A stretch of DNA of 64,000 nucleotides from Eubacteriales bacterium (GCA_045592105.1 JAZNUB010000041.1:20517-84516), one strand, 5' to 3'. Shown: positions 2,716-21,821, counted from the first letter of the stretch. The notes: generated by a model not told the origin, from the sequence alone. Numbers and translations: made by a program.

Positions 2716-3920
2716 TCGCTTTTCTTGTAGAAATAAGTAGCCATAAGCGTAGCGATAGCGGCTATTACGAGAACTGCCGAAGCTATGCTTAATTTAACAA
2801 TCAAGCCGTCTATAAAATCGCCGCGCTCGCTTTCGGTGGTAACACGCGAAAGCTCAACGGAAACGGATTGGTTAGTGGTTATATTGCTTAGCTTGCAGAT
2901 GTACTGCCTTTTGTTGCTTTTAGTGCTTTCAAAAACGGATACGTCCTTCTCAACGCCGTTTATCGTTACCTTTGTTATCGCATAGCCTTGGTTAAGCGTG
3001 AGCGTTACCTTGGCACCGGAGCCGTAGGTTACACTTGCGGGCGATGCGCTTATCTTACCGCCTTCGTTGTTACAGCTTGTGCTTATTTTAAACCTTCTGC
3101 TCGTATAAGTGTCCTTAATAGCCCAATCGGCAATGGTGGGCTCGGTATAGCTTAGCGCGTAATCCAAGCAATCGTCAAACGTGCCGTCCACAAAGGTGAT
3201 AGGTGCGGTGACACCGGAAATAACCTTTATATTTGCGGCAAGCTTTTTAATGCTTGTGTTGCTTCCCTCGGCAAACATAAAGAAATCCACGCCGGCATCG
3301 TAAATCTGCGCCGCGTTTGCGGGAACACGGATACCGCCTACGGTTAGCAAACGGTTTACCTTAGAGGTTTTGCGTGCCGCATAGTCAAAAGCGGCATCTG
3401 CCCCCGTGCCGATACCTGCCACAAGATGCTTTTCAAGGATTATTTCCGTTGCCTCTATTTCGCCCGCAAGCTCCATAACTGCGTTCATAACCTGCGTTGG
3501 CACCGTTTCGCTTTCGGAACTTTCTTCCGTAAAGCTTTCCTCCACGGGGCATTGGGGTGCTACTATTATATATTGAAAATCTTTGTAAAGCGCATCAGCC
3601 CCATCGGAAACAAGCTGGTTTAGCAGCCCTTTTTCGTTAAGCTGTGCCGTGTTATCGTTGCCCTTGCCGCCTTCACCGTGAAAATAAAGGATAAGCATAG
3701 CGGGCTTGTCCGTATTAGCGGAAGAATAGGAGGGGGAATAATATATACGATAGTTAAGCTCGTACTTTGTAGTAGATATATAGGTTTTGGCCACCATCTT
3801 TTCAGCAAGCTGCTGTGCCGTGGCAGAATCTAAAGCCCCTGCCGCAAAAACGGTTACGGAAAGCGCCGATATAAATATTATAACGGCAAAAAGCGCCGCA
3901 CTTATTCTTTTGATATTCAT
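2712..3920 (-). CDS. secreted alpha/beta-hydrolase (esterase-like) with Ig-like repeat and C-terminal TM anchor
   Basis: Signal peptide. LILYFHGEGGKGNDN motif typical of esterase/PHB-depolymerase-type hydrolases. C-terminal hydrophobic helix LSIASAVLVIAAIATLMATYF. ATGA overlap with the downstream gene. Confidence 0.6.
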   Translation of the reverse strand: MNIKRISAALFAVIIFISALSVTVFAAGALDSATAQQLAEKMVAKTYISTTKYELNYRIYYSPSYSSANTDKPAMLILYFHGEGGKGNDNTAQLNEKGLLNQLVSDGADALYKDFQYIIVAPQCPVEESFTEESSESETVPTQVMNAVMELAGEIEATEIILEKHLVAGIGTGADAAFDYAARKTSKVNRLLTVGGIRVPANAAQIYDAGVDFFMFAEGSNTSIKKLAANIKVISGVTAPITFVDGTFDDCLDYALSYTEPTIADWAIKDTYTSRRFKISTSCNNEGGKISASPASVTYGSGAKVTLTLNQGYAITKVTINGVEKDVSVFESTKSNKRQYICKLSNITTNQSVSVELSRVTTESERGDFIDGLIVKLSIASAVLVIAAIATLMATYFYKKSE

Positions 3921-5768: not shown

Positions 5769-6707
5769 ATGCTAAAAAGATTTTTTGCTATAATAGCTGC
5801 GGCAACAATCTCTATGTCATGCTTGTGCGGCACTGTGTCTGCGTATGATACGTTGGGGAATGATTATTCTCCGGATGCGATTATAATTACCTTGGCCTCT
5901 GATCGCGGCTCGATAGAGCTTGCGGAGGTAAAAGAGCTTAACGGTTTTGCCGCTGCACAGCCTTCCGAAAGGCCTGAGTTTGTCAACTTCTGTGGTATAG
6001 ATGTAAGCGGTGTCACCACTTTTACCGCTACGCCCGATATGTTTATCTTAAAGCTTTTAAATCAGGAAAAGCAGTATTATTTACCCCAGTTGGACTTTTT
6101 AAAGATAGCTTCGGGGGATACCCTTTCAAGTATTGATGCAAATATATTTGTTAGCATAGAAGATTCTTACTCGGCGCTTAACAAGATAATTATACCTAAT
6201 GAGGTGCTGTACTTTGTTGAAGTTGGCTCTGAGGCGGACGAGGTTTTGAAGGGCTTTTCCGAAAATGGGTGCGCCCTAAAAAGCTTTTACGGCGTTACTC
6301 TTGTCAGCGTTTCAACTATTGCAAGATACGAGGGCGAAGAAAAGCTTGCTTTGTATGCTATAAAGGTTTTGAAAAACAGCGATGTTTTGCCGCTTATAGA
6401 ACTGCTTAACGGCGAAAAGCTTGCAGAAAACAGAAATGCCGCACTTCACAGCTATCTTGGATATTCCGCTGTAGAAAGCCACTATCTTGATAGTACGGAG
6501 AAGCCAAGCGACAATGCAGTACGCAATATTGCAGTTGGGGACGTAAACGGCGATGGGGCGTTGGATAATATAGATGCCGCTTTGATACTTAAGTACGATG
6601 CCGGTATAGAGGATTTGGCAGATGCTGAATATGCCGATATAAACGGCGACGGTGAAGCAAATAACCTTGATGCCGCGATTATTCTTAGATACGATGCGGG
6701 TATGTAA
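5769..6707 (+). CDS. secreted dockerin-domain protein
   Basis: Start moved to MLKRFFAIIAAATISMSCLCGTVSA (signal peptide, GAGAGG RBS). C-terminus has two dockerin type I Ca-binding repeats: DVNGDGALDNIDAALILKY and DINGDGEANNLDAAIILRY. Confidence 0.85.
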   Translation: MLKRFFAIIAAATISMSCLCGTVSAYDTLGNDYSPDAIIITLASDRGSIELAEVKELNGFAAAQPSERPEFVNFCGIDVSGVTTFTATPDMFILKLLNQEKQYYLPQLDFLKIASGDTLSSIDANIFVSIEDSYSALNKIIIPNEVLYFVEVGSEADEVLKGFSENGCALKSFYGVTLVSVSTIARYEGEEKLALYAIKVLKNSDVLPLIELLNGEKLAENRNAALHSYLGYSAVESHYLDSTEKPSDNAVRNIAVGDVNGDGALDNIDAALILKYDAGIEDLADAEYADINGDGEANNLDAAIILRYDAGM

Positions 6708-6852
6708 CTTATAATTAACATGAAAAACGCTTGCCAAAAATCGGCAGGCGTTTTTTTAAAAAATATTGTGGTAATATCTTTCAATTTAAAGAGCTTTGTG
6801 GTATAATGATTTGATAAACCGCAGATAGTAGTAACGATAAGGAGGCGGCTGT

Positions 6853-7176
6853 ATGGCAAATTTCGAGCTTGTGTCCAAATTCAAGCCCACGGGTGACCAG
6901 CCCGAGGCGATAGAAAAGCTTACAAACGGTATATTGTCGGGGCTGAACGAGCAGGTTTTACTGGGGGTTACGGGTTCGGGTAAGACCTTTACTATGGCTA
7001 ACATTATAGCCAAGGTAAACAAGCCCACCTTGGTGCTTGTTCATAACAAAACGCTTGCCGCACAGTTATGCTCTGAGTTTCGAGAGTTCTTCCCCAACAA
7101 CGCGGTAGAATACTTCGTATCCTATCGGAAAATTCCCCTAAATTTTAGTGCAATATGTTCATATAATTTCATTTAG
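6853..7176 (+). pseudogene. uvrB: uvrB 5' remnant (native N-terminal ~91 codons, then unrelated sequence and a stop)
   Basis: [23 protein letters not shown]...[54 protein letters not shown] parallels the N-terminus of the full-length UvrB at 35318. Homology stops at 7125. Confidence 0.9.
7067..7094 (+). repeat. 28-nt perfect block shared by the two uvrB 5' copies (putative att core, left copy)
   Basis: tatgctctgagtttcgagagttcttccc is identical to 35532-35559. Flanking uvrB-like sequence is diverged. Confidence 0.85.
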
Positions 7177-7330
7177 TTCGCTAAAAGATGCGCAAAGTGC
7201 ACATAAAATATACGATTTTGCAATGCGGAAAAATCGTCAAAATGACCTGATTCGTCATCGAAAATAGAAGGTCATAGGGACGAACTCAAATTGAATATCG
7301 ATGGAATCAGGACGAATTAAAATATATAAT

Positions 7331-7380
7331 AGTCAGCAATATTATTGTGCCTATCGGCACGAGTATTGCTGACTTTTTTT
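7331..7380 (+). terminator. rho-independent terminator
   Basis: Stem agtcagcaata (7331-7341) pairs with tattgctgact (7364-7374), followed by a T run. Confidence 0.75.
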
Positions 7381-7539
7381 ATATGAAATCCTGTGTAAAA
7401 AATTTTTTGAAAAAATTCAATTTTTTTATAGACGTTTTTGCTTTTTTCGACATTTATATAGTGGAGACATTAGATAAATCTCAAAAATATTATTTTATAG
7501 GTCATGTTAAGCCAAAAACTCAAGATAAGGGAGCGTAAA

Positions 7540-8070
7540 ATGGGGAATATACTGCAACGTATCATTTATTATGCATCGTGTGCTACTCCCATAGCAATTA
7601 CATTTTCAATAGTATGGTGCATTCAAGAGCATACATGTTTAGTTCCTTCAATTATAATCTTGGTAGGCATATTTATATTAATCCTTTTCAAAAAGTTATT
7701 TTTGTATGCACTTAAATCATCACAAATAACTACGGTAAACGTGATAGAAGTTATCCCAAAAGATGGATGGGTACTTGCGTATATAATTTCTTACTTGTTC
7801 CCATTTGTGAGCTTTGTAATAGACGATGTTGATTATTTATTGTTCGGTATACTTTCGGTATTATTTGTAATCATTGCCGGATGTACGCATTCCGCAACGC
7901 CAAATCCTATCCTATGGGCATTCGGATATCACTTTTATGAATTGAAAAGTAAACACGGTATGTCCGGTTACATTTACGCATGTAAAGGCAAATTATGTAC
8001 TCCAAAGGATATAAAGACCGCTAGGCGTTATTTTGACTTGTTATTAGTAGAAGATAAATCTGAAAGGTAA
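7540..8070 (+). CDS. small 4-TM membrane protein, KwaA-like
   Basis: Start moved to MGNILQRII (AAGGGAG RBS). Four hydrophobic helices in ~176 aa. A 4-nt gap separates it from the next gene. Size and topology match Kiwa KwaA. Confidence 0.5.
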   Translation: MGNILQRIIYYASCATPIAITFSIVWCIQEHTCLVPSIIILVGIFILILFKKLFLYALKSSQITTVNVIEVIPKDGWVLAYIISYLFPFVSFVIDDVDYLLFGILSVLFVIIAGCTHSATPNPILWAFGYHFYELKSKHGMSGYIYACKGKLCTPKDIKTARRYFDLLLVEDKSER

Positions 8071-8074
8071 AATT

Positions 8075-8962
8075 ATGTTTGAAAACAGCTCTGTATTTAT
8101 ATTCACAGAATCCAATTGCCAGCATAGTGTATTGAAATTAGAAATGGATGCTAATACACAAAAAGCGATTTGCGAGACCTTTAATCAAGCACAAATAAGC
8201 TTGACGGAAAATAAGAACAAAATCGTTTTTGACGGTAACTATAAACCTCACGATGATGAATTCCTTTCGATTTCCAATTTTACATTGGCGGATGAAATTA
8301 AGGACGCAATCCGAAACCCTTTAGGAGTTCATAGTTATTGTAAAAGTGAAGATAAATATCCCGAAATTAAAGCTATCTTTGTAGGTGAAAAAGAAGATAG
8401 CAACGATAAAGAAGTTTTTCGCATTGCTTTTCAGCGTTTCAAAAAGGAACAGTATATATCTACAAAACCGTTCAATTTGTTTTTTGATAACAAAACATTT
8501 ATTCAAGAAACAAGATTTGGTATAAGTATCGCTGATACTATTGACTGTTATTATGAAGACGGAGAGCTTCAATTCCTATCATTTTATTTCGCTCGTCAAA
8601 TATTTGATTTAAGCGATTATTATCGCACAGCAACCGATAATGAAGTAACCACATTTGCTGCCAGCGATAAACTGGCTTTAGAAGATAAAGATCTATTTAT
8701 CGCAAATGCGAATTCTTGGATAAGGAGAAAAATCGCATTGATAAACGACTCCGGAGTTTTAAACAATAACACCGCACATCAAATAAAGTCGTTAGCCAAA
8801 AAAATAGGGGTTTCAGTTGATGTTGCTGACAACAAGGTGGTAATCCCCAGAGACAAAGAACAGGTCAAAATTATTTTAGGCTTCTTAGACGAAGAAGCAT
8901 ATAAAGGCCCTTTTACCAAAAAGACCTTTTTAGCAAATTCCAAAAGAACGATCGGGAAATAG
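8075..8962 (+). CDS. KwaB-like (DUF4868-like) protein
   Basis: 295 aa, soluble, tightly coupled to the 4-TM gene. The central ...IDCYYEDGELQFLSFYFARQIFDLSDYY... and C-terminal ...KIILGFLDEEAYKGPFTKKTF... regions resemble DUF4868 as I remember it. Not verified by HMM. Confidence 0.5.
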   Translation: MFENSSVFIFTESNCQHSVLKLEMDANTQKAICETFNQAQISLTENKNKIVFDGNYKPHDDEFLSISNFTLADEIKDAIRNPLGVHSYCKSEDKYPEIKAIFVGEKEDSNDKEVFRIAFQRFKKEQYISTKPFNLFFDNKTFIQETRFGISIADTIDCYYEDGELQFLSFYFARQIFDLSDYYRTATDNEVTTFAASDKLALEDKDLFIANANSWIRRKIALINDSGVLNNNTAHQIKSLAKKIGVSVDVADNKVVIPRDKEQVKIILGFLDEEAYKGPFTKKTFLANSKRTIGK

Positions 8963-8967
8963 GGAGG

Positions 8968-9876
8968 CTACAACTGATTTCTATAGTTGTATTTATTTAG
9001 CACTTGACGTTTGCGCTTGATACTGACTTCGGTATAAATTTCCGTTGTTGCTACGCTGCTATGCCCTAGAAGCTCCTGAACAGAACGAAGGTCTGCGCCG
9101 TTTGATAACAGATTGGTTGCTAATGTGTGACGAAGGCAATGTGGCGTTGCCTTTTCAGTTATTTTCGCGCTTTGTTTTGCGCTTTTGAATATGTATTCTA
9201 TGCCGTGTATACTTATTTGATTGCCATAGCGATTTACAAATACCTTATCGGTATAAAGTTCGGTTTTGTTACGGTATTTAAGCCATTGAGTAAGATTGTG
9301 CCAGGTTTCCGGGCAAGAAATATATATCAGCCTTTGCTTTCTACCCTTGCCGTGTATAAGTATTGTGTGTTCAGATGAAATAATGTCTGACAACGAAATG
9401 TTGGATGCTTCTTCTATACGAATTCCCGTGCATATAAGAATGTCAAGTAAGGCAAGGTTGCGTGCGTTTTTCCATTTTGCAGCTTCGGTATTTGATTGTT
9501 CGAAGCGCTTGTAGACAGCCTCCAAAAGAGAGCACACTTCCTTTTTGGTAAGTGTTTTGGGAAGGCGTTTAGCTTTTTTGAATTTGAATACATTAGCGTA
9601 ATAGTTTTTGTCTGTGTATCCTTTTTGATTAAGATACGCAAAAAACATTTTCAGTACAATGAGTTTTCGGTTGATTGTGCTGTCAGATAACTGTCGTGTA
9701 TCCATAAGATATGAAACATATTTAACAACCGTTTCTTCGTTGATGTCATCATCAAGAATATAGTTATTAAAATCTTTCAAATCTGAAAAGTAGGCAGTTA
9801 TTGTTTTAACCGATAGGTTCTTAGTGGAGCGTATGTGCTCCAAAAATTCGTTAGTAATGCTCTGATATTTGTTCAT
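8968..9876 (-). CDS. tyrosine recombinase, XerC/XerD-like
   Basis: 302 aa. Catalytic-signature motifs TGIRIEE (R), HCLRHTLATNLL (HxxR), LLGHSSVATTEIYTEV (H...Y). Confidence 0.9.
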   Translation of the reverse strand: MNKYQSITNEFLEHIRSTKNLSVKTITAYFSDLKDFNNYILDDDINEETVVKYVSYLMDTRQLSDSTINRKLIVLKMFFAYLNQKGYTDKNYYANVFKFKKAKRLPKTLTKKEVCSLLEAVYKRFEQSNTEAAKWKNARNLALLDILICTGIRIEEASNISLSDIISSEHTILIHGKGRKQRLIYISCPETWHNLTQWLKYRNKTELYTDKVFVNRYGNQISIHGIEYIFKSAKQSAKITEKATPHCLRHTLATNLLSNGADLRSVQELLGHSSVATTEIYTEVSIKRKRQVLNKYNYRNQL

Positions 9877-9951
9877 TTGTAAGCCCCTTTCTTGTCAAGC
9901 GGTAATCTTATATATTATAACAAAATTCGAGCAATTACAAATAAAATATAA

Positions 9952-10006
9952 TTACAATAACTACTTATTATTGTGAGATTACGAACACAGGATATTATTT
10001 TATTAT
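9952..10006 (+). repeat. R1: 55-bp element, perfect inverted partner of R2
   Basis: ttacaataactacttattattgtgagattacgaacacaggatattattttattat. Contains the palindrome ACAATAA-N7-TTATTGT. Ends 31 bp before the ATG at 10038. Confidence 0.95.
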
Positions 10007-10037
10007 CAATGATAAGTCTAGAAAATGAGGTGTCATT

Positions 10038-11498
10038 ATGGATGGCGTAGAAAAATCTAACATTTATATGGAGGATGGTCAGGATCATGAGTGCTGTAGT
10101 CTTACAGATATGGTATTCAAAGATCTCGACTATAGCCAATATAAGAACCCTATTTCTTTCTTTAGAAGCGATTTTAGTCGCAGCAGATTCTACAGTTGTA
10201 CATTCAATCGAAATTCGTTTGGGCGGGCAGATTTTATTGATGTCTTAATTAAAAACACAGAATTTGAATCTGTTGATTTTGGTTCTTGCTTGCTTAAAAA
10301 CGTATTGCTCGAAAAAGTGATTTTTTCTCGTAACAGTTATCGCGGTATAGCAATCCAATATACATGTTTTAGGAAGTGTGTTTTCAGAAATGAGGATTTC
10401 ATCACCAATATGTATCATTGCGAATTTCACGAGTGTACATTCATAAACTGTACATTCAAAAAATCATCTCTTGATTCTAATACATTTTCAAATTGTGAGT
10501 TTATCAAAGTAGATATGTCAGAGTGTATTGCAGAGAATTTAAAATTCGGTAATTGCTCGTTACGAGATGTATTCCTTGGAGCTAATCTTTGGACAACCTA
10601 TTTATATCGAGACACAGATATATACAGCTTTGGCTTTAAGTATAGAGGTAAACAAGTTGATATTTGGAATGGAGATCCTGCATCATTTGTAGGCGGATTG
10701 TTACAGAAGGAACTATTCTTTGAGTACTTTAATGTTTTAATAATCGGTGATCTCATTCCCCAATATGGCTTTGCATGTGAATTTGAAAGATTATTCCCCC
10801 AAATAATGACACTATCTTCACAGCAAAGGAAGAGAACGATTATAAAAATACTGGATATGCTCCTATTTTATCAAAACTATCAAAAGCTTCCAATTGGCGA
10901 ATATCTTTCTGTGTATACTTACTTGCTTCAAATGAATTGGGGAGATACTCCATTTGATGAAGTACTTATATACAATGCTGAATTGTTCAAAATTCAAAAA
11001 TCCATGGAGCAGTTAGACTTTGATTTGTCCTACATTAGAAGCTTTCCAACCAACGCTATCTGTATATCTAAGTATCATATCAACTGTGATGATGCTGCAA
11101 TTGCGCGGGAGTATTTAGAAAATGTCTTTAATTCAGCAAATCATCTGTTATGTGGTAATGAGTATAGTCAGCCATTAATTAAAGTAATTAATGAGGAAAA
11201 AGGGTCTGTAATTCTAACGATAGCTTCTGCTGCAGTTTTAGCACTGCTTGTATCATATGTTGCCAAAAAGGTTATGCACAATTTACATAGTATTCAAATA
11301 GAACACGGAATCAAAAAGCAATTATTAAGAAGTTTAACGGAGGGAGGAACAGATATATCCGATATCAAAAAAAGCTGTACGCTTGCCCAAAAACTAGATT
11401 TGCTGCCCAATGAAAAAGATTCTGAGCACATTAATCGTCTTTCATCCGAACTCACTAAGGGTGAGATACTTGATATCATTCTAAATTTCCTATTTTAG
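10038..11498 (+). CDS. pentapeptide-repeat protein with C-terminal TM helix
   Basis: Residues ~30-190 are runs of pentapeptide repeats (FSRSRFYSCTFNRNSFGRADFIDVLIKNTEFESVDFGSCLL...). One hydrophobic helix VILTIASAAVLALLVSYVAKKV sits near residue 400. GAGGTG RBS. Confidence 0.8.
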   Translation: MDGVEKSNIYMEDGQDHECCSLTDMVFKDLDYSQYKNPISFFRSDFSRSRFYSCTFNRNSFGRADFIDVLIKNTEFESVDFGSCLLKNVLLEKVIFSRNSYRGIAIQYTCFRKCVFRNEDFITNMYHCEFHECTFINCTFKKSSLDSNTFSNCEFIKVDMSECIAENLKFGNCSLRDVFLGANLWTTYLYRDTDIYSFGFKYRGKQVDIWNGDPASFVGGLLQKELFFEYFNVLIIGDLIPQYGFACEFERLFPQIMTLSSQQRKRTIIKILDMLLFYQNYQKLPIGEYLSVYTYLLQMNWGDTPFDEVLIYNAELFKIQKSMEQLDFDLSYIRSFPTNAICISKYHINCDDAAIAREYLENVFNSANHLLCGNEYSQPLIKVINEEKGSVILTIASAAVLALLVSYVAKKVMHNLHSIQIEHGIKKQLLRSLTEGGTDISDIKKSCTLAQKLDLLPNEKDSEHINRLSSELTKGEILDIILNFLF

Positions 11499-12660
11499 TG
11501 ATTCCTTCAATCAAGCATTGTTGATCAAGAAGTAGGTTTACGCGGAACGAATACAAGCCTTCCTCCCGATACAGATAACGTGAATGTGGTGTTGTTAGAA
11601 CTCCCGTCTTTTTTAAAATGTCCAACGCAAACTGGGTGTCATCTGTTTTTTCCGTATTTGGAACAGATAACAACGCAAAGTACCCACAGTTGGTAGAAGA
11701 AATCACTGTGCGTGTATCTCGTAATATTGCTTTTATCATCTTGTATCGATTCTGCGCAAGTTTTGCATTTTCAGCTATTAAACTTGTTAGAGTTTGAGAC
11801 GATACGAGTGAATATATCTGTGGAACCAGATTAACTTGTTGCTGTGCCATTGAACCTACCATAAATACAGAAAGGCGGAGTATCCTTTTCATTATTTTAG
11901 GAGAAGCAAATACAAGTGCAAATTTAGCCCCATTTAAAAATACTCGTTTTGATATTGACTCGATAAACACGTAATGCTCAGCGGAGCTTATTGCTTGAAA
12001 AACAGGAGAATTGAACATATAATATGATGGATTGAAAATATTCCATGGCATGCCGCCATACACATAATCCATAACAAGGCATACATTATGTTTGTTGCAC
12101 AGTGTAACAATACTCATTATTGTTTCAGTACTGAGTTCAATGCCACAACCAAATAGCGGGTTGGTAATTATAAGTGTATCAATGGAATTGCTAACGAAAT
12201 AGTTTTCTATAATATCGTTATGTAGCGAAAAATTATCGTTTGCACACAATTTATATTCAACGACATTGAAATCCAGTTCATCAAGCAGATTAAGCGTGGA
12301 AAAATACACAGGAGTGACAACCAATGCACTGTGTCTTCCTGCTTCTTTCAACGATGATAGTGTAAGCATTATGCCAGATGTACCATTTGACCCGATTGTA
12401 AAACTGTCCTTATGGAGCGAAATTGAATACTGATTTGAAAAAAATTTTTGAATAGTATCGCGATAACCTTCTTCGTCTGTCCAAAAATAGTACTTCTGAA
12501 CATCTGAAAGCTGCACAGAGTTAAGTGCTAAGCTTGGCATGTGAATGCTGTTATAATCAGCATCCCAATCCGATAGAAAAATTGGACTTGTGCCCGTTCT
12601 CTGGTAATAGGCAATTTTTGCTTGCATTATTGCTTTGATACTAGTATTATATCGTCTCAT
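11476..12660 (-). CDS. PLP-dependent aminotransferase-fold protein (class I/II-like)
   Basis: ITNPLFGCG (compare NPxNPTG), VMDYVYGG (compare DEVY) and SISKRVFLNGAKFA (SxSK PLP-lysine motif). ATGA overlap with the upstream GNAT gene. 23-nt convergent overlap with the pentapeptide gene. Confidence 0.7.
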   Translation of the reverse strand: MRRYNTSIKAIMQAKIAYYQRTGTSPIFLSDWDADYNSIHMPSLALNSVQLSDVQKYYFWTDEEGYRDTIQKFFSNQYSISLHKDSFTIGSNGTSGIMLTLSSLKEAGRHSALVVTPVYFSTLNLLDELDFNVVEYKLCANDNFSLHNDIIENYFVSNSIDTLIITNPLFGCGIELSTETIMSIVTLCNKHNVCLVMDYVYGGMPWNIFNPSYYMFNSPVFQAISSAEHYVFIESISKRVFLNGAKFALVFASPKIMKRILRLSVFMVGSMAQQQVNLVPQIYSLVSSQTLTSLIAENAKLAQNRYKMIKAILRDTRTVISSTNCGYFALLSVPNTEKTDDTQFALDILKKTGVLTTPHSRYLYREEGLYSFRVNLLLDQQCLIEGITKIGNLE

Positions 12661-13319
12661 TCTTTTTCCTGCCTTGAGATTAAAATAAGGGTCTTGTTTT
12701 CAGATCCTAGTGCAATACCTTCATAACCACATCGGAGCATTAGGTTTAACTGATTTATTTCTCCTCTTGGGACGACAAACATTTTTTGATCGTTATCTTT
12801 CTCCTGCAGAGGTAAATTTGCGCACATAATAAACCGTTTTACCCCATAGATTTCATCATGCAAAACAATTCGTTGCTTTATTTTAAAAGCCAATGCCAGA
12901 CTAGGCGTATTTTGAGGTGATACCGTGCTCAATAAGATAGTAAATTGAGGATCGATATGTAACATCAAATATCGAATAAGCCGTTCAGCTATTCCCAATC
13001 TTCTGAATTCGGGCACAATACAAATGTGCTCCATTTGCACAACAGAAAGAAGTTTTTTCTCATCATAATGGAGCAAGTGTCCAAGGTTATTCTTACCTCT
13101 TTTAGGAAAAACAAATGATACGAATCCGATGAGAGCGTCTTCATAAAAAGCCCCCATCGTGTGGCCGTATCCAGAAATGATTTTAATGATGTAGTATAAA
13201 CTAGGGGGGATAAATAAGTCATTGCTTAATGTTGAAGTAACGATTTGCAAACAACGAGAAATCTGATGTATGTCATCCAAATTCAATAATCTTATTGTAA
13301 GATGTTTCTCAAAATTCAT
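12657..13319 (-). CDS. GNAT-family N-acetyltransferase
   Basis: Motif A ICIVPEFRRLGIAERLIRYL. Start moved to MNFEK because the track start at 13373 lies inside repeat R2. Confidence 0.75.
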   Translation of the reverse strand: MNFEKHLTIRLLNLDDIHQISRCLQIVTSTLSNDLFIPPSLYYIIKIISGYGHTMGAFYEDALIGFVSFVFPKRGKNNLGHLLHYDEKKLLSVVQMEHICIVPEFRRLGIAERLIRYLMLHIDPQFTILLSTVSPQNTPSLALAFKIKQRIVLHDEIYGVKRFIMCANLPLQEKDNDQKMFVVPRGEINQLNLMLRCGYEGIALGSENKTLILISRQEKE

Positions 13320-13339
13320 CAATCCACCACGCATACTGT

Positions 13340-13394
13340 ATAATAAAATAATATCCTGTGTTCGTAATCTCACAATAATAAGTAGTTATTGTAA
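13340..13394 (-). repeat. R2: 55-bp element, perfect inverted copy of R1
   Basis: Its reverse complement equals 9952-10006 base for base. Lies immediately upstream of the minus-strand GNAT/aminotransferase operon. Confidence 0.95.
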
Positions 13395-13449
13395 GGTAAG
13401 TACGTACGTCAACAGAACACGTAAAAAAGAAAAATAACCTAATTATATC

Positions 13450-13467
13450 ACAATAATCCGGTTATTG
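13450..13467. promoter_or_regulatory. degenerate fifth copy of the repeat core overlapping a minus-strand promoter-like sequence
   Basis: acaataatccggttattg (CAATAA-N5-TTATTG). The minus strand reads caataaccggattattgtgatataat, an extended -10 TGnTATAAT aligned to the attattgtgagatta segment of R1-R4. Confidence 0.5.
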
Positions 13468-13553
13468 AAATTGAATTATTAAGTTTGTGCGCATGAACGG
13501 CAAGCTGTATCATAACTGATTTTAATATGATTTAAGAATAAATATAAAATACG

Positions 13554-13612
13554 ATAATCCTACAATAACTGCTAATTATTGTGAGATTATGATAGCTAGG
13601 GACTGTAATTTG
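13554..13612 (+). repeat. R3: 59-bp element, perfect inverted partner of R4
   Basis: ataatcctacaataactgctaattattgtgagattatgatagctagggactgtaatttg. Shares the core tacaataact..attattgtgagatta with R1/R2. Confidence 0.95.
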
Positions 13613-13647
13613 TTTATATCAAATTAAAACAAAAGTACAATGTTGAT

Positions 13648-14718
13648 TCACTTAGGAATGGCATATACTACTGACTCCTCATAATAACAAGAATGATGCC
13701 GAAAATATAAATCATATCCCAAACCTAATTTATGTATGTATTGAGGAATTTCTACATAATCTGATATTTTATGATATGAGCATACTGCTAATATTGGTTT
13801 ACAAGATTTAATAGTTTTTATTGCGCCTTCAAGTGCCTGCAATTCTGCCCCCTCGATATCTAAAGCGATTATTGCAACATCGCTGAGGCAGCAATCATCT
13901 AATAGTAATGTTTGAACAATACTATTTCCGTTACCTTCTGCGCACACTTTGGCTCCTAGTTCATTTGAATTATCAAAGGAAATGTAACCATTGCTGTTAT
14001 AAAGTGCTTTTTCAATTATTTTTATTTTAGACAAATTACAAAACTTTTGACGCAAATATTCTGTCCAAATTGAATTCGGCTCGAAAAGTATGGCATTCTT
14101 TATATCTGTTTGCGTTAGCGCCCTATCAATGTGACTTCCATTATAGGCGCCTCCAAGAATTATTGTTCCTTTTTCTGGAACGTTTGGCACTATATCATTT
14201 CCCCAGTATGGATGCCCAGAAAAAAGCATAGGATCATATACGCGTCCTATTATTCGTGATTTCCAATATTCCTTATATAGTTTTTGAGAAGTTGCATCTG
14301 CGAAAAGTTTCGAAGTGTCAATAATTTCTAATTCATGATCCAATGCATAAAAATATGCTTCAATCGATGTACATGGTAGTATTGGGAAATAGTAGCATTG
14401 CAAATGATCATATAGCTCACCTAAATAATTATAAAACTCCTGATCTTCTGCGGCAATCAATATTATAGCGTTCTCTGAGCGTATGTTTTTTATTTCGTGT
14501 AACGGAAATACAGGAATTCCGCGCACACCGTTTGGATACTCTTCTGGGGAAAAATCGTATATTTTGTATGGCAACGGCAATCGCGGATTGGTTTCAGAAC
14601 AAAATGGTTCTAATAGAAAAGACTCTGCATGCTTCGCACCCAAACATAGCAATGATTTAGTTCCGTAAAAAACTGGAGTTAGCATTTTTGTAATAACGGA
14701 AATACTATCAAGACTCAT
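13648..14718 (-). CDS. FkbM-family SAM-dependent methyltransferase with N-terminal extension
   Basis: GGAYNGSHI and IALDIEGAELQALEGA motifs of FkbM methyltransferases. Start moved to MSLDSISV (AGGAGG, then 7 nt, then ATG). Confidence 0.7.
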   Translation of the reverse strand: MSLDSISVITKMLTPVFYGTKSLLCLGAKHAESFLLEPFCSETNPRLPLPYKIYDFSPEEYPNGVRGIPVFPLHEIKNIRSENAIILIAAEDQEFYNYLGELYDHLQCYYFPILPCTSIEAYFYALDHELEIIDTSKLFADATSQKLYKEYWKSRIIGRVYDPMLFSGHPYWGNDIVPNVPEKGTIILGGAYNGSHIDRALTQTDIKNAILFEPNSIWTEYLRQKFCNLSKIKIIEKALYNSNGYISFDNSNELGAKVCAEGNGNSIVQTLLLDDCCLSDVAIIALDIEGAELQALEGAIKTIKSCKPILAVCSYHKISDYVEIPQYIHKLGLGYDLYFRHHSCYYEESVVYAIPK

Positions 14719-14751
14719 ATTTAAACCTCCTGTGAAAGGATTGATACCACA

Positions 14752-17700
14752 ATGAAAGACCAATGGCAATTTACATTAATATCTGAAATCAAATCGATCA
14801 TTCGGGGAAAAGGCTGTTCTGAAGGACTATGTTTTTTCCTTGGTGCGGGAGCAGATATTACTAGTGGAGGAATGCTGTTTTCAGATTTAAAAAGACGATG
14901 TCTATACCAACAAGGCATTTCTCTTCCTATAAATGCTTCACCTTTGATGATTGATTGCACCTTTGACCAATACTTTCGTGCGTTGACAGAAGATGAACGT
15001 TGTATTGTTTTAGAAAATCTTCTTCGCGAAACAAGAAGATTTAATCCGTCGGATGGATATCGGTTACTTGTACTCATGGCCAGGGAAAAGTTTGTATCCT
15101 CTGTAATTACGACTAATTTCGATAATTTAATGGAACAGACAGAGTTAGATATGGGAATTAATGCATTTCAGATATATTCCCCTGGAATTTCTATTCCGGC
15201 GTCACACATAATAAATCATCGTTCATCGAGGGCAATTTATCTAAAAATGCACGGAGATGTTGATGGTAGGTGCGTTACGCACCTCACAGTAGAAGAAATT
15301 AACAATCGTAATTATCAAGATGAATATAAAATATTGTTGCAGCATTTGCTTACACATAGTACGGTCATTGTTGCAGGCTATAGTGGCTATGACTCAAAGA
15401 TTGCAGATATATTTCAGCAAAATCTTGATCGATTACATACCGTATATTGGTGCAATCCGTCTTTACCAAACCCTGATGCTCCGCTGGTGAAGGTCCTAAA
15501 CAGTGCACAAAAGTTACGATATATTCAAACCGGATTCGATGCTTTCGTAGAAACTATTGCAAGTGAACTGTTTCGAGAGCGCATGATATTTCATGCAGAC
15601 TCAATTTTTATATGGTCGCTAATTAAAACAAAAATCGAAAAGCTACAAGATATCTATCGCAAGAGCGCAGACTTGCCAACTAGTGAAATCTGCATCCCAA
15701 GACTTGCCGCATTGTCCCAATTCGATCAATTTTTAGCCCAAACGGAAAAAAATCTTTTCATTTTATCCGGTCCTCAAGGTTCGGGAAAAACAGTTTTAAT
15801 TTCTCAGTTATTAATGCGCAATGAAGCGGATAACCTATATGTTGTTCCTATATCCGCTCCAGGTGCATTAGTTCCTGATCCCTCTGCTTATTTAATTGAA
15901 AATCTCGGCTATATTACAACCAACCCAATGTCTGTGCTCTATCAATTTACGGAATGGTTGCATGAAATCAAGAAGGATGTTGTAATTGTATTTGACTCCA
16001 TTGGCAGTGGACAATCTAGTAGGGAACGTATCGCAGATTATCTGAGTACAATAATAGAATTAGCATATATACTTCGACATGTTCCAAATGTAAAATTCAT
16101 AATTTCATTAAAAGACGATATATTTAACAACGTGGCAAAGGATTTAGATCAAAACTATTTGCGTACTGTTCTTTGGAGTAATAGTCATTCTCTTGGTCTA
16201 TCAAGTTTGTTCATGGACGGCTTCACGGACGAGGAACTATCTAGTGCTCTTCAAATATTCCGTTATCGTTTTACAGCACATGAGGTTAATGAGATATCGG
16301 ATGATATTCGTAGTTTATTTCGAATCCCATTTTTCTTCGGATTAGCGTTACAGCATAATTTCAACAGCGGAACATCGATATTTGACGTAGCGGGATTAAT
16401 GCCTACAATTGATCGTATCTTTGCGATATATGAATTGTCGTTCGCGGAAAGGAAGTTTCTCCAAAATCTTGCAACAAAAATGTTAAATACAAACAATTCG
16501 GTTTTGCGCATTGATGAAATAGAATTTGAAACTTTGCACGGTTTGAAACAGATTCTGAATGTGACTTCCGATTGTGTTTCTTTTCGTCATCCGCTATTTT
16601 GGCAGTACTTTCTCGTGCGTTCATATAAGACAAAACAAATTTTAAATAATGGTACGTTTGTTGACCTTAATTGGATAGCGTCTACTTTTTTGTGCGAAAC
16701 GACTGAACGAGCAATTCAAGAAAGTTTTGTATTATTTCTTTCGGATGAAGAAGAAATCGATTGCGTGTGTAATTTTTTTGTTAGATTGTTACAGGAAAAT
16801 CAGTGCAATTCTTCTCGATTATTGCATGTGAACAAATTAATTGGACAGGTAGTTGATAACTGGGCTATTAACCGTACAAATGATCTTTTGCAGTGGGTAA
16901 AATATGTAGATTCCAAAAGTGAAAGTTTTATATTAATTTCGAAAAGACTTGCGTATTGCTCGACTCATATGGATGATACGAATGCATATTTGTTACTGGA
17001 TATGTTACGAATTCGTTGTACAAATCCAATTGCGTTAGAGTGTTGCGTGTTGATCAATGATCGTTTTTCAGAGGGATTAAAACGTGTACCAGAGGGAGAG
17101 GAATGCGAATATTTTGGCAAGTATGGCTATATTCTTAAGTCCAACACCGCACTTGGAACATTAGTACAATTTGTATGGTTAATGAGTAAAATCGGAATCG
17201 ATAATCTCGAACTCAATCATTACACTCGATTGGCCAAGTGCGTAAAAAAACAGATCGAATCTTTGGACGTTTCTAATGTCACCAAGGAAGATGCAGAGCT
17301 ACTTAAAGAAGGTTTTGTACAAAATGTATACATGATCTTCTTTAATGCTAATAGTAATTTGGAAGAAAAATTTTACTGCTTCGCAGCAAAGTCTAAAACA
17401 TCCCCAATAATCCGTACTTTACTCAACGGCAAAGATGGTATAACATTACAGCATTTGTACGAAATTCGTTCATGTGTTGATCATTTCGATGAAACAATAG
17501 AGTTCTTTGTCTGTAATTTATTGTTTACGCTCTCTATGTTGCAAAATCCCAATCGTGCGCTTAGTGAATTGGATGCCCTGTATAATAGTTTCGGAGATAA
17601 TGTAAATATCCTTGAACTAGACTTCTATCTCAGTGCGTTGTTCATGTCTTGTTATATATCAGATCCCAGAGAACGGATGCAATATTTAACTCGATTCGAA

Positions 17701-18375
17701 CAAACCATCATCGATTACGAAACATTAATTTTTTATACACCAGCAGATGGACGTATATCATCTTGTCGGCGTTTTTCTGATCAATTTGATCTTGAGTTTG
17801 AAGATGGGTTTAATGCTCTAACAAACTATTCATATACAGCTCCTAGTATAAATTATATAAATCGTGACAATGAGAAACAGGGCGTTGATGAATATTTAAA
17901 AGCATACTGGTACCTTCTGGATACATTGGAAACAACGGGCAATTATGAAAAAATTCTACGACTTTTGCAAGCAGTCAGTCAAATGATTGTGAATTGGCCA
18001 AAAGAAGGATTTGATGCCTTGGAAAAATTTGTTTCGATCAAACATCCACTTATCCACCGCGGCGTAGTTAGAGTGTTGTCTCAGAACTATTTGCGTTATC
18101 CTTCGATTACAAAATCATTTCTTAACAAGAACGGTGATAATTTCACGTATCATGAACTTTTGGAGATTCAAGGCAATGCATCAGCAAATATTGAGTATCG
18201 AACGCTTGAGCAACTACAATGGGCGCGTATGTTATACTTTTTGCGCACATGGATTGACGCAGATATCATCGAAAAGGTTTTGACGATTTTTATTACAACT
18301 GATACTCTAGAATCAGCGCTTATGAAAATTATTGCTTTAACGAAAGGTTCAAATAGTGACGAATTAATTGGTTGA
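14752..18375 (+). CDS. SIR2-like domain / P-loop NTPase / helical-repeat protein (SIR2-STAND, Avs-like architecture)
   Basis: N-terminal motifs FFLGAGADITSGG, VITTNFDNLMEQ, YLKMHGDV and VIVAGYSGYD match the SIR2_2-type pattern. Walker A GPQGSGKT (nt 15769-15792) and Walker B-like DVVIVFDS. About 750 aa of mostly helical C-terminal sequence follow. Confidence 0.75.
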   Translation: MKDQWQFTLISEIKSIIRGKGCSEGLCFFLGAGADITSGGMLFSDLKRRCLYQQGISLPINASPLMIDCTFDQYFRALTEDERCIVLENLLRETRRFNPSDGYRLLVLMAREKFVSSVITTNFDNLMEQTELDMGINAFQIYSPGISIPASHIINHRSSRAIYLKMHGDVDGRCVTHLTVEEINNRNYQDEYKILLQHLLTHSTVIVAGYSGYDSKIADIFQQNLDRLHTVYWCNPSLPNPDAPLVKVLNSAQKLRYIQTGFDAFVETIASELFRERMIFHADSIFIWSLIKTKIEKLQDIYRKSADLPTSEICIPRLAALSQFDQFLAQTEKNLFILSGPQGSGKTVLISQLLMRNEADNLYVVPISAPGALVPDPSAYLIENLGYITTNPMSVLYQFTEWLHEIKKDVVIVFDSIGSGQSSRERIADYLSTIIELAYILRHVPNVKFIISLKDDIFNNVAKDLDQNYLRTVLWSNSHSLGLSSLFMDGFTDEELSSALQIFRYRFTAHEVNEISDDIRSLFRIPFFFGLALQHNFNSGTSIFDVAGLMPTIDRIFAIYELSFAERKFLQNLATKMLNTNNSVLRIDEIEFETLHGLKQILNVTSDCVSFRHPLFWQYFLVRSYKTKQILNNGTFVDLNWIASTFLCETTERAIQESFVLFLSDEEEIDCVCNFFVRLLQENQCNSSRLLHVNKLIGQVVDNWAINRTNDLLQWVKYVDSKSESFILISKRLAYCSTHMDDTNAYLLLDMLRIRCTNPIALECCVLINDRFSEGLKRVPEGEECEYFGKYGYILKSNTALGTLVQFVWLMSKIGIDNLELNHYTRLAKCVKKQIESLDVSNVTKEDAELLKEGFVQNVYMIFFNANSNLEEKFYCFAAKSKTSPIIRTLLNGKDGITLQHLYEIRSCVDHFDETIEFFVCNLLFTLSMLQNPNRALSELDALYNSFGDNVNILELDFYLSALFMSCYISDPRERMQYLTRFEQTIIDYETLIFYTPADGRISSCRRFSDQFDLEFEDGFNALTNYSYTAPSINYINRDNEKQGVDEYLKAYWYLLDTLETTGNYEKILRLLQAVSQMIVNWPKEGFDALEKFVSIKHPLIHRGVVRVLSQNYLRYPSITKSFLNKNGDNFTYHELLEIQGNASANIEYRTLEQLQWARMLYFLRTWIDADIIEKVLTIFITTDTLESALMKIIALTKGSNSDELIG

Positions 18376-19684
18376 ACAGTTCAAGTTCATGTTCTTCCAT
18401 AAAAAGACTGGGCGATAAAAGAAAAGCATTTTCAAAAATACCCCCAACAGATATAATTAACCCATAGTTTGTATTTCTTATAGACATAGGTTGAGTTAAT
18501 GCTAATTCGGCAACTCTACGAGTTAATACTGGATCGGGTCGCTTTGAAATAGGATCTACCAATTCTAGACCAGCGGCCATTCCGCAGCAATCAACGCGTC
18601 CAATGATGGAATAATCCGCTTTTAGCTGTGTTATTATTTCGTTAAATACATGGGATTTTCTTGCCACCTGATTCTGCAGGCTTTCTGAAGCCGTAAGTTC
18701 CATCGCTGTGATTCCTAGAGACATTGCAATTGGGTTCCCTGAAAAGGTAGAGTGAGAAGAACCACATGGCCATTGATCGGGGGATATTATTTCTTCGCGT
18801 GCCCATACACCAGACAGAGGCCATAATCCATTGGTTATCGATTTACCAAATGTAAACATATCTGGAGTTACGTTATAGTTTTCAAATGCCCACATTTTCC
18901 CTGTTCGAAAAAAACCCATTTGAATTTCATCGAAAACAAGATAAATACGGTGTTTATTTAGTAACGCTTTTAACTCACCAAAGTATTCCTTTGGGGGCAT
19001 AACATATCCACAGCGTCCGAGGAGCGGTTCTGCAAAAAAGGCTCTATATTCGCTAATCTCATTTTGGGGTTGAAATACGCCATAGTACTCCGATTCAAAC
19101 ACACGTTCGATCTGCTTGATGCAAAATAAATTGCAAGAAGTGTTTATTTTTTCATATGGACATCGGATACAACATGGAAATGGAATACGATATGTATTGA
19201 TAATACTGCCAAACTGATTATGGTATCGGTTACTTGAACTTATACTAGATGCAGCCATCGTTCTGCCATGGTATGCACCTTCAAACGTAAACACATTTTT
19301 AGTTCCAGTCGATGATGAAATTATTTTTAATGCATCATCGACTGCTTGTGCTCCCCCAACTGAGAAGTGTACACGTCCTTTTACTCCATGTTTCTGTTCC
19401 ATATAGGAACATATCTTTTCGGCAAGTATGACTTGAGAGTCGCACATATACTCTCCAGATAAACTTGGAAGTTGTTTCATCTGTCGCACTAAAGCTTCTT
19501 CAAATAAGGGATTTCGATATCCAAAGTTCGCTGCACTATTATACATCTGCATATCAAGATATTTCGTTCCGCTATTATCGAACAAAAAACAACCTTCGCC
19601 CTTACTGAAGTACTTCTTAGGTTGGTGTCGAGCGCTAGTATCGCCCTGAGAACAATACTTTTGCTCCGTTTCTTGAATATTCAT
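18329..19684 (-). CDS. class III (omega-type) PLP aminotransferase
   Basis: YLVFDEIQMGFFRTGKMWAFE and FTFGKSITNG (PLP lysine) motifs. Strong RBS AAAGAGGGG. 47-nt convergent overlap with the SIR2-STAND gene. Confidence 0.8.
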   Translation of the reverse strand: MNIQETEQKYCSQGDTSARHQPKKYFSKGEGCFLFDNSGTKYLDMQMYNSAANFGYRNPLFEEALVRQMKQLPSLSGEYMCDSQVILAEKICSYMEQKHGVKGRVHFSVGGAQAVDDALKIISSSTGTKNVFTFEGAYHGRTMAASSISSSNRYHNQFGSIINTYRIPFPCCIRCPYEKINTSCNLFCIKQIERVFESEYYGVFQPQNEISEYRAFFAEPLLGRCGYVMPPKEYFGELKALLNKHRIYLVFDEIQMGFFRTGKMWAFENYNVTPDMFTFGKSITNGLWPLSGVWAREEIISPDQWPCGSSHSTFSGNPIAMSLGITAMELTASESLQNQVARKSHVFNEIITQLKADYSIIGRVDCCGMAAGLELVDPISKRPDPVLTRRVAELALTQPMSIRNTNYGLIISVGGIFENAFLLSPSLFMEEHELELFNQLIRHYLNLSLKQ

Positions 19685-19729
19685 GATATTTACCCCTCTT
19701 TAACTTAATGTAGTCCAATAAAAAGATTG

Positions 19730-19788
19730 CAAATTACAGTCCCTAGCTATCATAATCTCACAATAATTAGCAGTTATTGTAGGATTAT
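19730..19788 (-). repeat. R4: 59-bp element, perfect inverted copy of R3
   Basis: Its reverse complement equals 13554-13612. Ends 45 bp upstream of the class III aminotransferase start codon. Confidence 0.95.
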
Positions 19789-19870
19789 TGCGGATTTAAA
19801 AGGATTTGCACATTTTTTCAGCGTAAAAACAAAACGTATAAAGAAAAGACCTGTAATCGCAATTGATTAA

Positions 19871-19927
19871 TCCCCTTAGAGCAATCTTGAAACATTTTTG
19901 TTGTTTCAAGTGTCTACTCTAAGGGGA
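19871..19927. other. long nested hairpin at a module boundary
   Basis: Outer stem tccccttagag (19871-19881) pairs with ctctaagggga (19917-19927). Inner stem cttgaaaca (19886-19894) pairs with tgtttcaag (19902-19910). No flanking T run. Confidence 0.7.
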
Positions 19928-19969
19928 TCATATCAAACACAGCAATTTCATTTTTATGTGCAAAAAGCA

Positions 19970-19998: not shown

Positions 19999-20031
19999 AA
20001 TTATACCAACAGATGATAGGCGGGCGATTAT

Positions 20032-21798: not shown

Positions 21799-21821
21799 TA
21801 CTTGTTAAAGGAGGGATAAAA

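Follow-up and report, generated by a model that had tools for sequence, protein, structure and literature searches.

Inversion of a DNA segment by a recombinase is as such already known, and several of the described systems stand close to the one treated here. In the Mu G and P1 C segments (Gin/Cin), convergent alternative gene sets lie in an invertible segment with a promoter outside it. C. difficile RecV, E. coli FimB/FimE with fimS, and the invertons of Bacteroides combine short inverted repeats with a nearby tyrosine recombinase, in Firmicutes often an Xer-like enzyme, and give rise to reversible heterogeneity. The hsdS shufflons (S. pneumoniae ivr/PsrA-CreX, Mycoplasma, Bacteroides) and R64 Rci have a dedicated tyrosine recombinase in or beside a defence locus, several independent segments and alternative products, and the pdif (pXerC/D) modules of Acinetobacter are placed between opposed Xer-type sites, form alternating arrays and invert reversibly (PMC9947245). 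In the present work, we examine by computational means a locus in which these features recur, at positions 9952-13394 of a 64,000-nt stretch of DNA from an Eubacteriales bacterium (GCA_045592105.1 JAZNUB010000041.1:20517-84516; the whole stretch is called the window). The segment carries a gene for a pentapeptide-repeat protein (PRP) that converges on the genes of a GNAT acetyltransferase and of an aminotransferase-fold enzyme (AT) dependent on pyridoxal phosphate (PLP). We will show that relatives of this segment are found in both orientations in nature, and we consider it likely that the segment itself is an invertible two-faced cassette that works as a one-promoter either/or switch.

The three genes make up two faces on opposite strands. 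Face A is PRP, at 10038-11498 (+), which encodes 486 aa with pentapeptide repeats, a helical middle domain and a C-terminal hydrophobic anchor. In face B, the first gene is GNAT (12657-13319, −; 220 aa from the likely ATG at 13319; Acetyltransf_1 E=1.1e-5) and the second is AT, a class-I-fold PLP enzyme (11476-12660, −; 394 aa; Aminotran_1_2, PF00155, E=8.4e-18). The GNAT open reading frame (ORF) extends to 13373, inside the repeat arm described below, and its likely start is preceded by GGTGGA. The GNAT stop and the AT start share an ATGA, giving translational coupling, and the ORFs of PRP and AT overlap tail to tail by 23 nt (11476-11498). An earlier reading, made from the sequence alone, had noted the three genes and both overlaps and was right in what it stated about the segment: the pentapeptide repeats of the 486-aa protein are recognized by Pfam (Pentapeptide_4, E=1.3e-14) and modelled as a beta-helix, the coupled GNAT and class I/II aminotransferase pair is recognized likewise, and both overlaps can be read directly.

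The segment is bounded by two 55-nt elements, the left arm at 9952-10006 and the right arm at 13340-13394, which are complementary at 55/55 positions and thus constitute an inverted, not a direct, repeat. The sequence-only reading had placed identical 55-bp elements before both transcription units. Their identity stands, but a role as duplicated promoters does not: the repeat is inverted, and the promoter match within it, TTGTGA-16-TATTAT, is no better than in shuffles (p ~0.67). A more fitting reading is that the elements are the two arms of a segment inverted by a recombinase. Each arm holds a core (9954-9981 on the left, 13365-13392 on the right), which in the left arm consists of ACAATAA, the spacer CTACTTA and TTATTGTGAGATTA. 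The pattern ACAATAA-N7-TTATTGTGAGATTA has only four sites in the 64-kb window, all at the ends of the present cassette (cassette 1) and of a second one described below (cassette 2), and none in shuffles; the search, run with up to 2 mismatches, returns six matches, since the near-palindromic sites of cassette 2 match on both strands. The inner arm of the site is 14 nt long and the spacer 7 nt, and the outer arm is more degenerate. Two arms around a short spacer are the layout of an Xer/tyrosine-recombinase site. The spacers of the two cassettes, CTACTTA and CTGCTAA, differ at two positions, and because tyrosine recombinases require matching spacers, each cassette should recombine only with itself.

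The arms also appear to keep a trace of an earlier state. A degenerate relic core, GGATATTATTTTATTAT(C), lies at 9990-10007 in the inner half of the 55-nt repeat, with its mirror in 13340-13356. In what follows, L numbers denote related loci retrieved for comparison; those of the PRP family were 24 genomic and 64 metagenomic loci. The relic is identical at ~21/25 positions to the core of L001 type and homologous to the GGATAAT...ATTATC cores of L001 and L023 type, and the outer core is similar to the one in L017, the locus with the recombinase nearest to that of the window (46% identity). Since a relic core of another type sits within the repeat and the outer core is L017-like, the arms suggest that the cassette may have been re-flanked on joining a different recombinase type. 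A separate observation concerns L060, L063 and L064 (repeat at ~5880-5981) and L056 (5791-5879), where each arm has two complete cores in tandem, at a distance of ~23 nt in L060 and 15 nt in L056; these could allow nested inversions or be the trace of a past cassette capture.

Beside the left arm lies the gene of an Xer-like tyrosine recombinase (8968-9876, −, 302 aa), the presumed invertase. The protein matches Phage_integrase (E=4.7e-37) and has an N-terminal SAM-like domain, and its catalytic set is complete (R153, K177, H246, R249, H272, Y281). With NCBIfam, it scores 233 bits for XerC and 219 bits for XerD, below the equivalog cut-offs. A candidate promoter for this gene, with the extended −10 element TGTTATAAT at 9914-9922 (−), can be predicted. 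In all of the 36 loci that have long flanks on both sides (36/36), a homologue with 29-46% identity adjoins the cassette. It flanks AT in 33 loci and PRP in 15. Other types of element were also considered. A Gin/Cin/Hin-type segment is ruled out, as the recombinase belongs to the tyrosine family and is not a serine invertase. An integron cassette is likewise ruled out: the integron-integrase models reach 112 and 84 bits against cut-offs of 265 and 435, the palindromic cores are inverted, and there is no IntI or attC. For a transposon with terminal inverted repeats, finally, the recombinase would not lie outside the repeats, nor would the same element be seen in both orientations at the same place, as is the case here.

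Inversion itself is visible among the homologues. Four pairs of near-identical elements, each from different samples, have a collinear cassette and flanks that are swapped and reverse-complemented, with breakpoints that overlap exactly by the repeat. In L057 and L058 the cassette is 100% identical over 2697 nt and both flanks are swapped at 95-98%; for L060 and L063 the cassette identity is 99.6%, for L068 and L069 it is 99.1%, and for L023 and L093 it is 99.0%. L023 comes from the isolate Blautia caecimuris DSM 29492, and the junctions of this last pair put the exchange point within AACCAAGGATAATATCTAATTATC, at the core. We are highly confident that cassettes of the PRP/AT family invert in nature. 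The orientation that forms the assembled majority is either one, depending on the natural sample. There are also hints in the contig ends. In three contigs (L038, L062, L086), the terminal sequence perfectly repeats the opposite flank as its reverse complement, in L086 including the 3′ end of the recombinase gene, which would be expected if both orientations coexisted in one sample. Several cassette-sized contigs end exactly at their 20-25-nt repeats, for example that of the isolate Paenibacillus algorifonticola (L020). It is important to point out that contig breaks at repeats were not accepted as proof of inversion if the repeat equalled or exceeded the assembler k-mer in length; contigs that break at short repeats or end in flank copies were kept, as hints only.

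The unit is conserved, with the pair placed between such repeats at ~90 loci from several phyla, in hosts that include Lachnospiraceae, Acutalibacteraceae, Blautia, Paenibacillus, Acetobacterium, Treponema, Ferruginibacter, Emticicia and Cloacimonadota. Among 1.84 billion proteins, the PRP family has 81 representatives at E<=1e-30; it forms 42 clusters at 90% identity, with all members at ~470-510 aa. The AT family (~40 clusters) mirrors it contig for contig, and the two proteins are exclusive, co-diverging partners. The source databases give these proteins no names. PRP (+) and AT (−) are convergent in every related locus that has both genes on the contig, and in most loci their ORFs overlap at the 3′ ends by 4-60 nt. 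Wherever both ends are on the contig, the pair is bounded by inverted repeats of 16-127 nt with the palindromic core GATAA-N7-TTATC, and the repeat in relatives is often merely 18-29 nt. GNAT is accessory, as ~30/46 non-redundant cassettes (2.65-2.95 kb) contain PRP and AT only. It is found in three arrangements: upstream of AT and on its strand, as in the window; past the 5′ end of AT on the PRP strand (L005, L012, L033); and between PRP and AT (L038). The idea of a conserved three-gene set thus holds for the PRP/AT pair, which co-occurs across genomes, but not for GNAT, which is optional, present in a minority of cassettes and located on either strand.

The similarities of PRP and of the recombinase to their counterparts in the window are incongruent, with 65% for PRP and 33% for the recombinase in L001, and 29% and 46%, respectively, in L017. 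Searches of IMG/VR and PLSDB returned no relative of PRP, so the cassette is neither phage- nor plasmid-typical. In an exact look-up, neither the PRP nor the recombinase protein of the window was on record. Two further observations were made in passing. Compared with L053, L089 has a 1.4-kb insertion inside the PRP gene (at L053 ~6427), the elements being otherwise 98-99% identical; this may be an inactivation of PRP by an insertion sequence. L079 and L082 are two GNAT-containing copies of the element on one contig (OPDF01000004), 56 kb apart and in the same arrangement.

For the expression logic, promoters were scored against shuffles in the 140 nt outside each repeat at 33 non-redundant loci, and the 160-nt inner leaders were treated likewise. 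One outer flank is above chance in 12/33 loci and both flanks in none (0), and the inner leaders are above chance in 2/66, which is the chance level. One-sided promoters directed inward occur in L001 (TTGCAC-17-TATAAT), L016 (TTGAAG-17-TATAAT), L021 (TGGTATAAT), L030 (TGGTAAAAT) and L015 (TGCTATAAT). In the usual layout the promoter is on the flank opposite the recombinase and faces inward; a minority have it on the recombinase side, still one-sided (L014, TTGACA-17-TATAGT; L060, TTGAAA-18-TGGTATAAT; L032). The promoter shared by L023 and L093 is directed at GNAT-AT in the former and at PRP in the latter. At seven loci (L009, L021, L023, L029, L030, L066, L069) the recombinase gene is followed by an intrinsic terminator hairpin and then by the core. 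At L017, a CCTCC outside the core palindrome lengthens it, solely on the recombinase side, and the resulting hairpin covers the ribosome-binding site. We have also considered a classical inverton, with the promoter inside and the genes outside the repeats; here the genes are inside and the best promoter matches outside.

In the window, a candidate fixed promoter can be placed at 13470-13442 (−), where TTTCAA (13470-13465) is followed after 17 nt by TGaTATAAT (13450-13442), within the 159-nt spacer 13395-13553. Its score of 11.5 corresponds to p ~0.02 against shuffles, it is the sole one of the four cassette flanks above chance, and it reads leftwards into the GNAT-AT face. By analogy with L001, L016, L021, L023/L093 and L030, it may serve as the fixed promoter of cassette 1. 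A generic promoter and terminator scan of the AT-rich DNA of the window was uninformative (45 promoter-like sites against 48 expected), and an Rfam scan of 6500-21500 gave nothing relevant, with no riboswitch or leader family in the shared 5′ leaders.

The gene arrangement has to be read together with these scores. Because the convergent genes overlap, there is no room for a terminator between PRP and AT. Other genes are set 5′ to 5′ with almost no spacer, namely the methyltransferase and SIR2-STAND genes of cassette 2 and the decarboxylase and PRP genes of L029; such genes can hardly have private promoters, so transcription would cross the whole cassette on one strand. Taken together, the one-sided promoter, the terminator opposite to it, the inner leaders at chance level and the 3′-overlapping genes point to orientation as what would set gene expression. 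One external promoter in combination with 3′-overlapping convergent genes implies that PRP and AT would be expressed alternately rather than jointly.

The mechanism that we favour, and think probable for 9952-13394, is then the following. The recombinase encoded at 8968-9876 would recombine the two inverted cores and thereby flip the 3.4-kb segment. A single fixed promoter on one flank, in the window presumably the one in the spacer 13395-13553, would read whichever strand faces it, and the output would be either the PRP-anchor protein or the GNAT-AT operon. The expressed face would also be read as antisense over the silent face, so that the two states should exclude each other. With the segment oriented as sequenced, GNAT-AT would be expressed and PRP silent. 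Cassette 2 would be a second, independent switch of the same type, the difference in spacers preventing cross-recombination. For the population, the switch would provide two alternative states, in the manner of bet-hedging.

Cassette 2 is located at 13554-19788 (6235 nt) and is bounded by 59-nt perfect inverted repeats (13554-13612 and 19730-19788). It contains the genes of an FkbM methyltransferase (13648-14721, −), a SIR2-STAND protein (14752-18375, +, 1207 aa) and a class-III aminotransferase (18329-19684, −), of which the first two are divergent, with starts at 14721 and 14752, 30 nt apart. The likeness in design between the two cassettes, which had been seen already from the sequence, is borne out by the repeats and by Pfam. 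The trio is conserved elsewhere, with an Xer-like recombinase on either side. Inverted repeats around it were looked for in two loci; they were found in L096 and not detected in L099. Many contigs with the trio are ~6.1-6.25 kb long, near the cassette length of 6235 nt, which suggests that they were broken at the repeats. Neither flank of cassette 2 has a promoter above chance.

Across the array in the window, the orientation of the sites alternates (forward, reverse, forward, reverse). A comparable array is found in L029 (6447-12610), where two tandem cassettes, each with its own spacer sequence, stand behind one recombinase. The first sets a polyprenyl synthetase against a 225-aa protein, the second contains PRP and AT together with a PLP decarboxylase placed 5′ to 5′ with PRP, and the 124 nt between the two cassettes hold a terminator hairpin. 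The tandem cassettes thus carry unlike spacers both in the window and in L029. The window would thus hold two members of a broader class of recombinase-flipped two-faced cassettes.

What the two faces do is a separate matter. The AlphaFold2 (AF2) model of PRP, with a predicted local distance difference test score (pLDDT) of 85.7, shows a quadrilateral beta-helix at ~25-207, a helical domain, and a small sheet with a long helix. Residues 391-409 are strongly hydrophobic (Kyte-Doolittle 19-residue mean 2.44), and a membrane anchor is plausible from the sequence. The C-terminal transmembrane helix proposed earlier is therefore supported as regards the hydrophobic segment, but not by the AF2 model, in which part of that segment is a strand followed by the long helix. 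The structure search with PRP gave generic PRP beta-helices only (MfpA, Qnr, AlbG, McbG-like), with HalA at rank 30, and no structural match for the C-terminal half (~280 residues). PRP is not a member of the Qnr family (NCBIfam 32 bits against a cut-off of 240) or of the MfpA family (23 against 360). Hailong (HalA/HalB) was considered and set aside, as the HalA score is below the cut-off and the partner of PRP is an aminotransferase, not a nucleotidyltransferase.

AT agrees in fold, lysine, aspartate and arginine with a fold-type I (class I) PLP aminotransferase. The PLP lysine Lys238, Asp198 and Arg373 are invariant in the family, and the class-I active site is intact. The nearest structures to its AF2 model (pLDDT 91) are Asp, prephenate, Tyr and Ala aminotransferases, with template-modelling (TM) scores of ~0.8 and 12-17% identity, and the identity to solved enzymes is at most 18%. 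The structure search returned generic class-I aminotransferases only, with no substrate clue. Orthology to a known amino-sugar or amino-acid pathway, a possibility raised by the sequence-only reading, was looked for among the curated enzyme families and not found, the best NCBIfam score being 71 bits against cut-offs of at least 292. GNAT has the acetyl-CoA motif RRLGIA. The suggestion that it might be an aminoacyl-tRNA-acetylating toxin finds no support, as there is no match among NCBIfam families and no solved structure below E=0.4, the PDB matches having E of at least 0.46. We have also considered a TacT/AtaT-type GNAT toxin with its antitoxin; the partner here is a 394-aa PLP enzyme, and GNAT is dispensable in most cassettes.

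PADLOC 2023 gives no match for PRP, AT or GNAT, while the neighbouring Kiwa and SIR2 do match. The impression that this gene set is unlike described systems has thus held up: no curated family tested matches it, PADLOC finds none of the three, and the NCBIfam scores are far below the cut-offs. From the location in a defence island and from the HalA-like combination of a PRP domain with a putative membrane segment, we offer a tentative and rather doubtful assignment by analogy: PRP would act at the membrane as an effector of defence or exclusion, and AT, alone or together with GNAT, would make or modify an amino-acid-derived molecule. As natural samples have one or the other orientation as their assembled majority, a face expressed alone should not be lethal, and a classical toxin-antitoxin or producer-immunity pair is disfavoured. 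The earlier idea of a toxin/immunity or small-molecule/immunity module accordingly loses its toxin in need of an immunity partner and keeps a small-molecule role of AT and GNAT, which is possible.

One may go further and ask whether the cassettes belong to a general type. They could be widespread, self-contained flip cassettes, each made up of recombinase, terminator, site, two-faced cargo, second site and promoter, in which one face is an immune-type effector (PRP-anchor, SIR2-STAND) and the other a small-molecule enzyme (aminotransferase with acetyl- or methyltransferase, decarboxylase, prenyl synthase), the two being functionally coupled across the switch. As an example of such coupling, a metabolite or envelope modification made in the enzyme state might protect against, prime or restrain the effector state. 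We put this forward as a speculation that is more probably wrong than right.

A number of observations weigh against the switch that we favour. The promoter calls are consensus matches, and with the simple consensus score 21/33 loci have no flank above chance. A perfect TATAAT (9947-9952) with a poor −35 is present on the left flank in the window, and some rightward transcription into PRP is possible. L008 has a 127-nt perfect inverted repeat (1-127 and 3522-3648) that reaches both contig ends and carries TTGACA-17-TATAAT outside the core on both; in this variant either both faces are on or the assembly has had an effect. Some far flanks hold co-directional genes able to read into the cassette. 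The position of GNAT on the PRP strand in L005, L012 and L033 is awkward if GNAT always serves AT and the faces never coincide. The recombinase gene of the window points away from the cassette; L053 and L054 have this minority arrangement too. For the window copy itself, inversion is inferred from homology with its inverted relatives. The weakest step is the cargo, for which the functions are predicted; PRP resembles HalA in the PRP fold alone (47 bits, with the cut-off at 250; TM 0.15-0.21).

These points have to be considered together with other explanations of the locus. The alternating site orientation of the window array is the same as in pdif arrays, and the pdif modules of Acinetobacter, bounded by opposed XerC/D sites, reversibly invert in clonal cultures (PMC9947245). 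The segment could then be a mobile unit of pdif-module type, whose inverted Xer-type sites mainly move or exchange the cassette and whose inversion is a by-product without regulatory role. This would agree with the incongruent similarities of PRP and recombinase in L001 and L017, with the relic core in the window and the tandem cores of L056 and L060, which suggest re-flanked cassettes, and with the position of the PRP cassette beside unlike second cassettes in the window and in L029. However, the dedicated recombinase is with the cassette in 36/36 loci, whereas pdif modules rely on the host XerCD, and in L023/L093 both the recombinase terminator and, at the opposite side, the promoter belong to the conserved unit. 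The inner leaders without above-chance promoters, together with the convergent 3′ overlap, moreover require that orientation matter for expression, and the cassette is found neither in PLSDB plasmids nor in IMG/VR. Inversion as a mere by-product therefore seems to us improbable. Mobility and the switch are compatible, and pdif-like mobility can be a rival to the either/or switch or its complement.

A promoter in each 55-bp element would lead instead to three jointly expressed genes, that is, a toxin/immunity or metabolite/immunity module in which PRP gives immunity as in McbG/AlbG and in which GNAT and AT are toxin or biosynthetic enzymes. Pentapeptide-repeat immunity proteins are established, and PRP has structural matches to AlbG, McbG-like proteins and Qnr. 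The exclusive co-divergence of PRP and AT is in line with such a module, as is the repeated recruitment of GNATs in three arrangements; the weak TTGTGA-16-TATTAT of each arm is at a sensible distance from the start codons, and the L008 repeat holds a consensus promoter at both ends. But the in-repeat match does not stand out from shuffles, as given above, and the repeats of relatives, at often 18-29 nt, are too short for a promoter. Promoters are one-sided, the recombinase side ends in a terminator, and convergent genes that overlap at their 3′ ends with no terminator are ill-suited to joint expression. Both orientations occur as the majority state in samples, so neither face is lethal alone, and GNAT is missing from most cassettes and has no detectable relation to tRNA-acetylating toxins. 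We consider joint expression very unlikely. The most conventional view, of housekeeping amino-acid or amino-sugar genes beside an unrelated PRP, with the repeat due to chance or to a transposon remnant, could draw on the canonical class-I fold and intact catalytic residues of AT and on the polysaccharide genes near a few loci. AT is, however, without orthology to a curated enzyme family and at most 18% identical to solved enzymes, its family follows that of PRP contig for contig, the pair never occurs without bounding inverted repeats and a recombinase, and the setting is a low-GC island in uvrB. The co-conservation data effectively refute the housekeeping view.

As regards the genomic setting, the two cassettes lie between a complete Kiwa system and an HTH-DUF3990 gene. 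Kiwa (7504-8962; PADLOC KwaA E=7e-22, KwaB E=3e-85) is upstream of the recombinase, and the KwaB stop is 5 nt from the recombinase stop. The HTH-DUF3990 gene (20032-20886; PADLOC candidate PDC-M13B) has a perfect consensus promoter, TTGACA-17-TATAAT, at 19970-19998, and ahead of it, just outside cassette 2, lies a hairpin of high stability at 19868-19934 (−31 kcal/mol on one strand, −36 kcal/mol on the other). All of this is part of a low-GC island of 28 kb (~7125-35350) that has entered uvrB at its 5′ end. To the left of the island a 5′ fragment of the gene is left over (6853-7176), and to the right an 83%-identical copy starts the full uvrB (35318-37264), the repeat being 6886-7124 against 35351-35589. 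Two tyrosine integrases are encoded at the right end of the island (32554-33729 and 34075-35058). The rest of the island (21789-23855, 24055-25776, 29069-29203, 29706-32203) contains an Agr-like LytTR response regulator with a GHKL kinase, two tandem paralogous 282-aa ORFs with repeated blocks of 72-88% identity, a run of 27-nt coding repeats, and an MBOAT plus DHHW pair. At other loci, the defence neighbours are PtuA, AriA, JetD, a reverse transcriptase and AbiL, and the mobility neighbours are relaxases and genes of a type IV secretion system; polysaccharide genes are near a few loci.

A recombinase gene in a defence island is commonly taken for no more than a sign of a mobile element. In the present case, such a recombinase appears to run two either/or switches of unrelated gene sets, one with SIR2-STAND, beside Kiwa. 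If this is true, the gene list of a gut Firmicute would not by itself tell which defences are expressed, such loci would be systematically broken or wrongly oriented in short-read assemblies, and a cross-phylum partnership of a membrane PRP and a PLP enzyme would be awaiting its function. If the speculation about coupled faces is true as well, it would amount to a new organising principle for bacterial immunity and a new biochemical function for the PRP/aminotransferase pair, with a division of labour in the population or a timed hand-over after each flip. The element is compact, ~4.6 kb with recombinase and promoter, and could serve as a natural two-state toggle. It is present in the cultured Blautia caecimuris DSM 29492 and Paenibacillus barcinonensis CECT 7022, so the predictions are directly testable.

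We finally compare the cassette with the known systems. A search of the literature on this gene pair, on invertible defence cassettes and on Hailong gave no description of a PRP/AT switch, and in a survey of gene-altering inversions the pentapeptide and aminotransferase families appear only in a general table (PMC9881135). On the protein side, PRP has the pentapeptide beta-helix of Qnr, MfpA, McbG and AlbG and is about twice the size of Qnr or MfpA. With the anti-phage effector HalA (PDB 9nyi) it has in common a right-handed quadrilateral beta-helix and, by prediction, a membrane segment; the likeness is confined to the repeat fold, and there is no HalB-type nucleotidyltransferase partner.

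On the side of the switch, classical invertons flip a small promoter-bearing or regulatory element beside fixed genes, with an on/off output, whereas in the cassettes described here the promoter would be fixed, 2.7-6.2 kb of genes would flip, and the output would be A or B. Shufflons recombine within coding sequences and reassort the domains of one protein; the present sites are in 5′ leaders, and it is unrelated operons that would alternate. The pdif modules are plasmid-borne, use the host XerCD and have genes with promoters of their own (resistance, toxin-antitoxin), while the unit here includes a private recombinase, a terminator and a promoter, and is chromosomal or on an integrative element. 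The closest parallel in logic is that of the Mu G and P1 C segments. These depend on serine invertases with a Fis enhancer and exchange homologous tail-fibre variants, which are fused to a constant N-terminal part outside the segment. In the window cassette, the recombinase is instead of the tyrosine (Xer-like) type, the genes are complete and have ribosome-binding sites of their own, and the faces are not homologous to each other. Inversion by a recombinase is common ground for all of these systems, and what is new here is the cargo, together with the probable A-or-B strand switch of whole genes.

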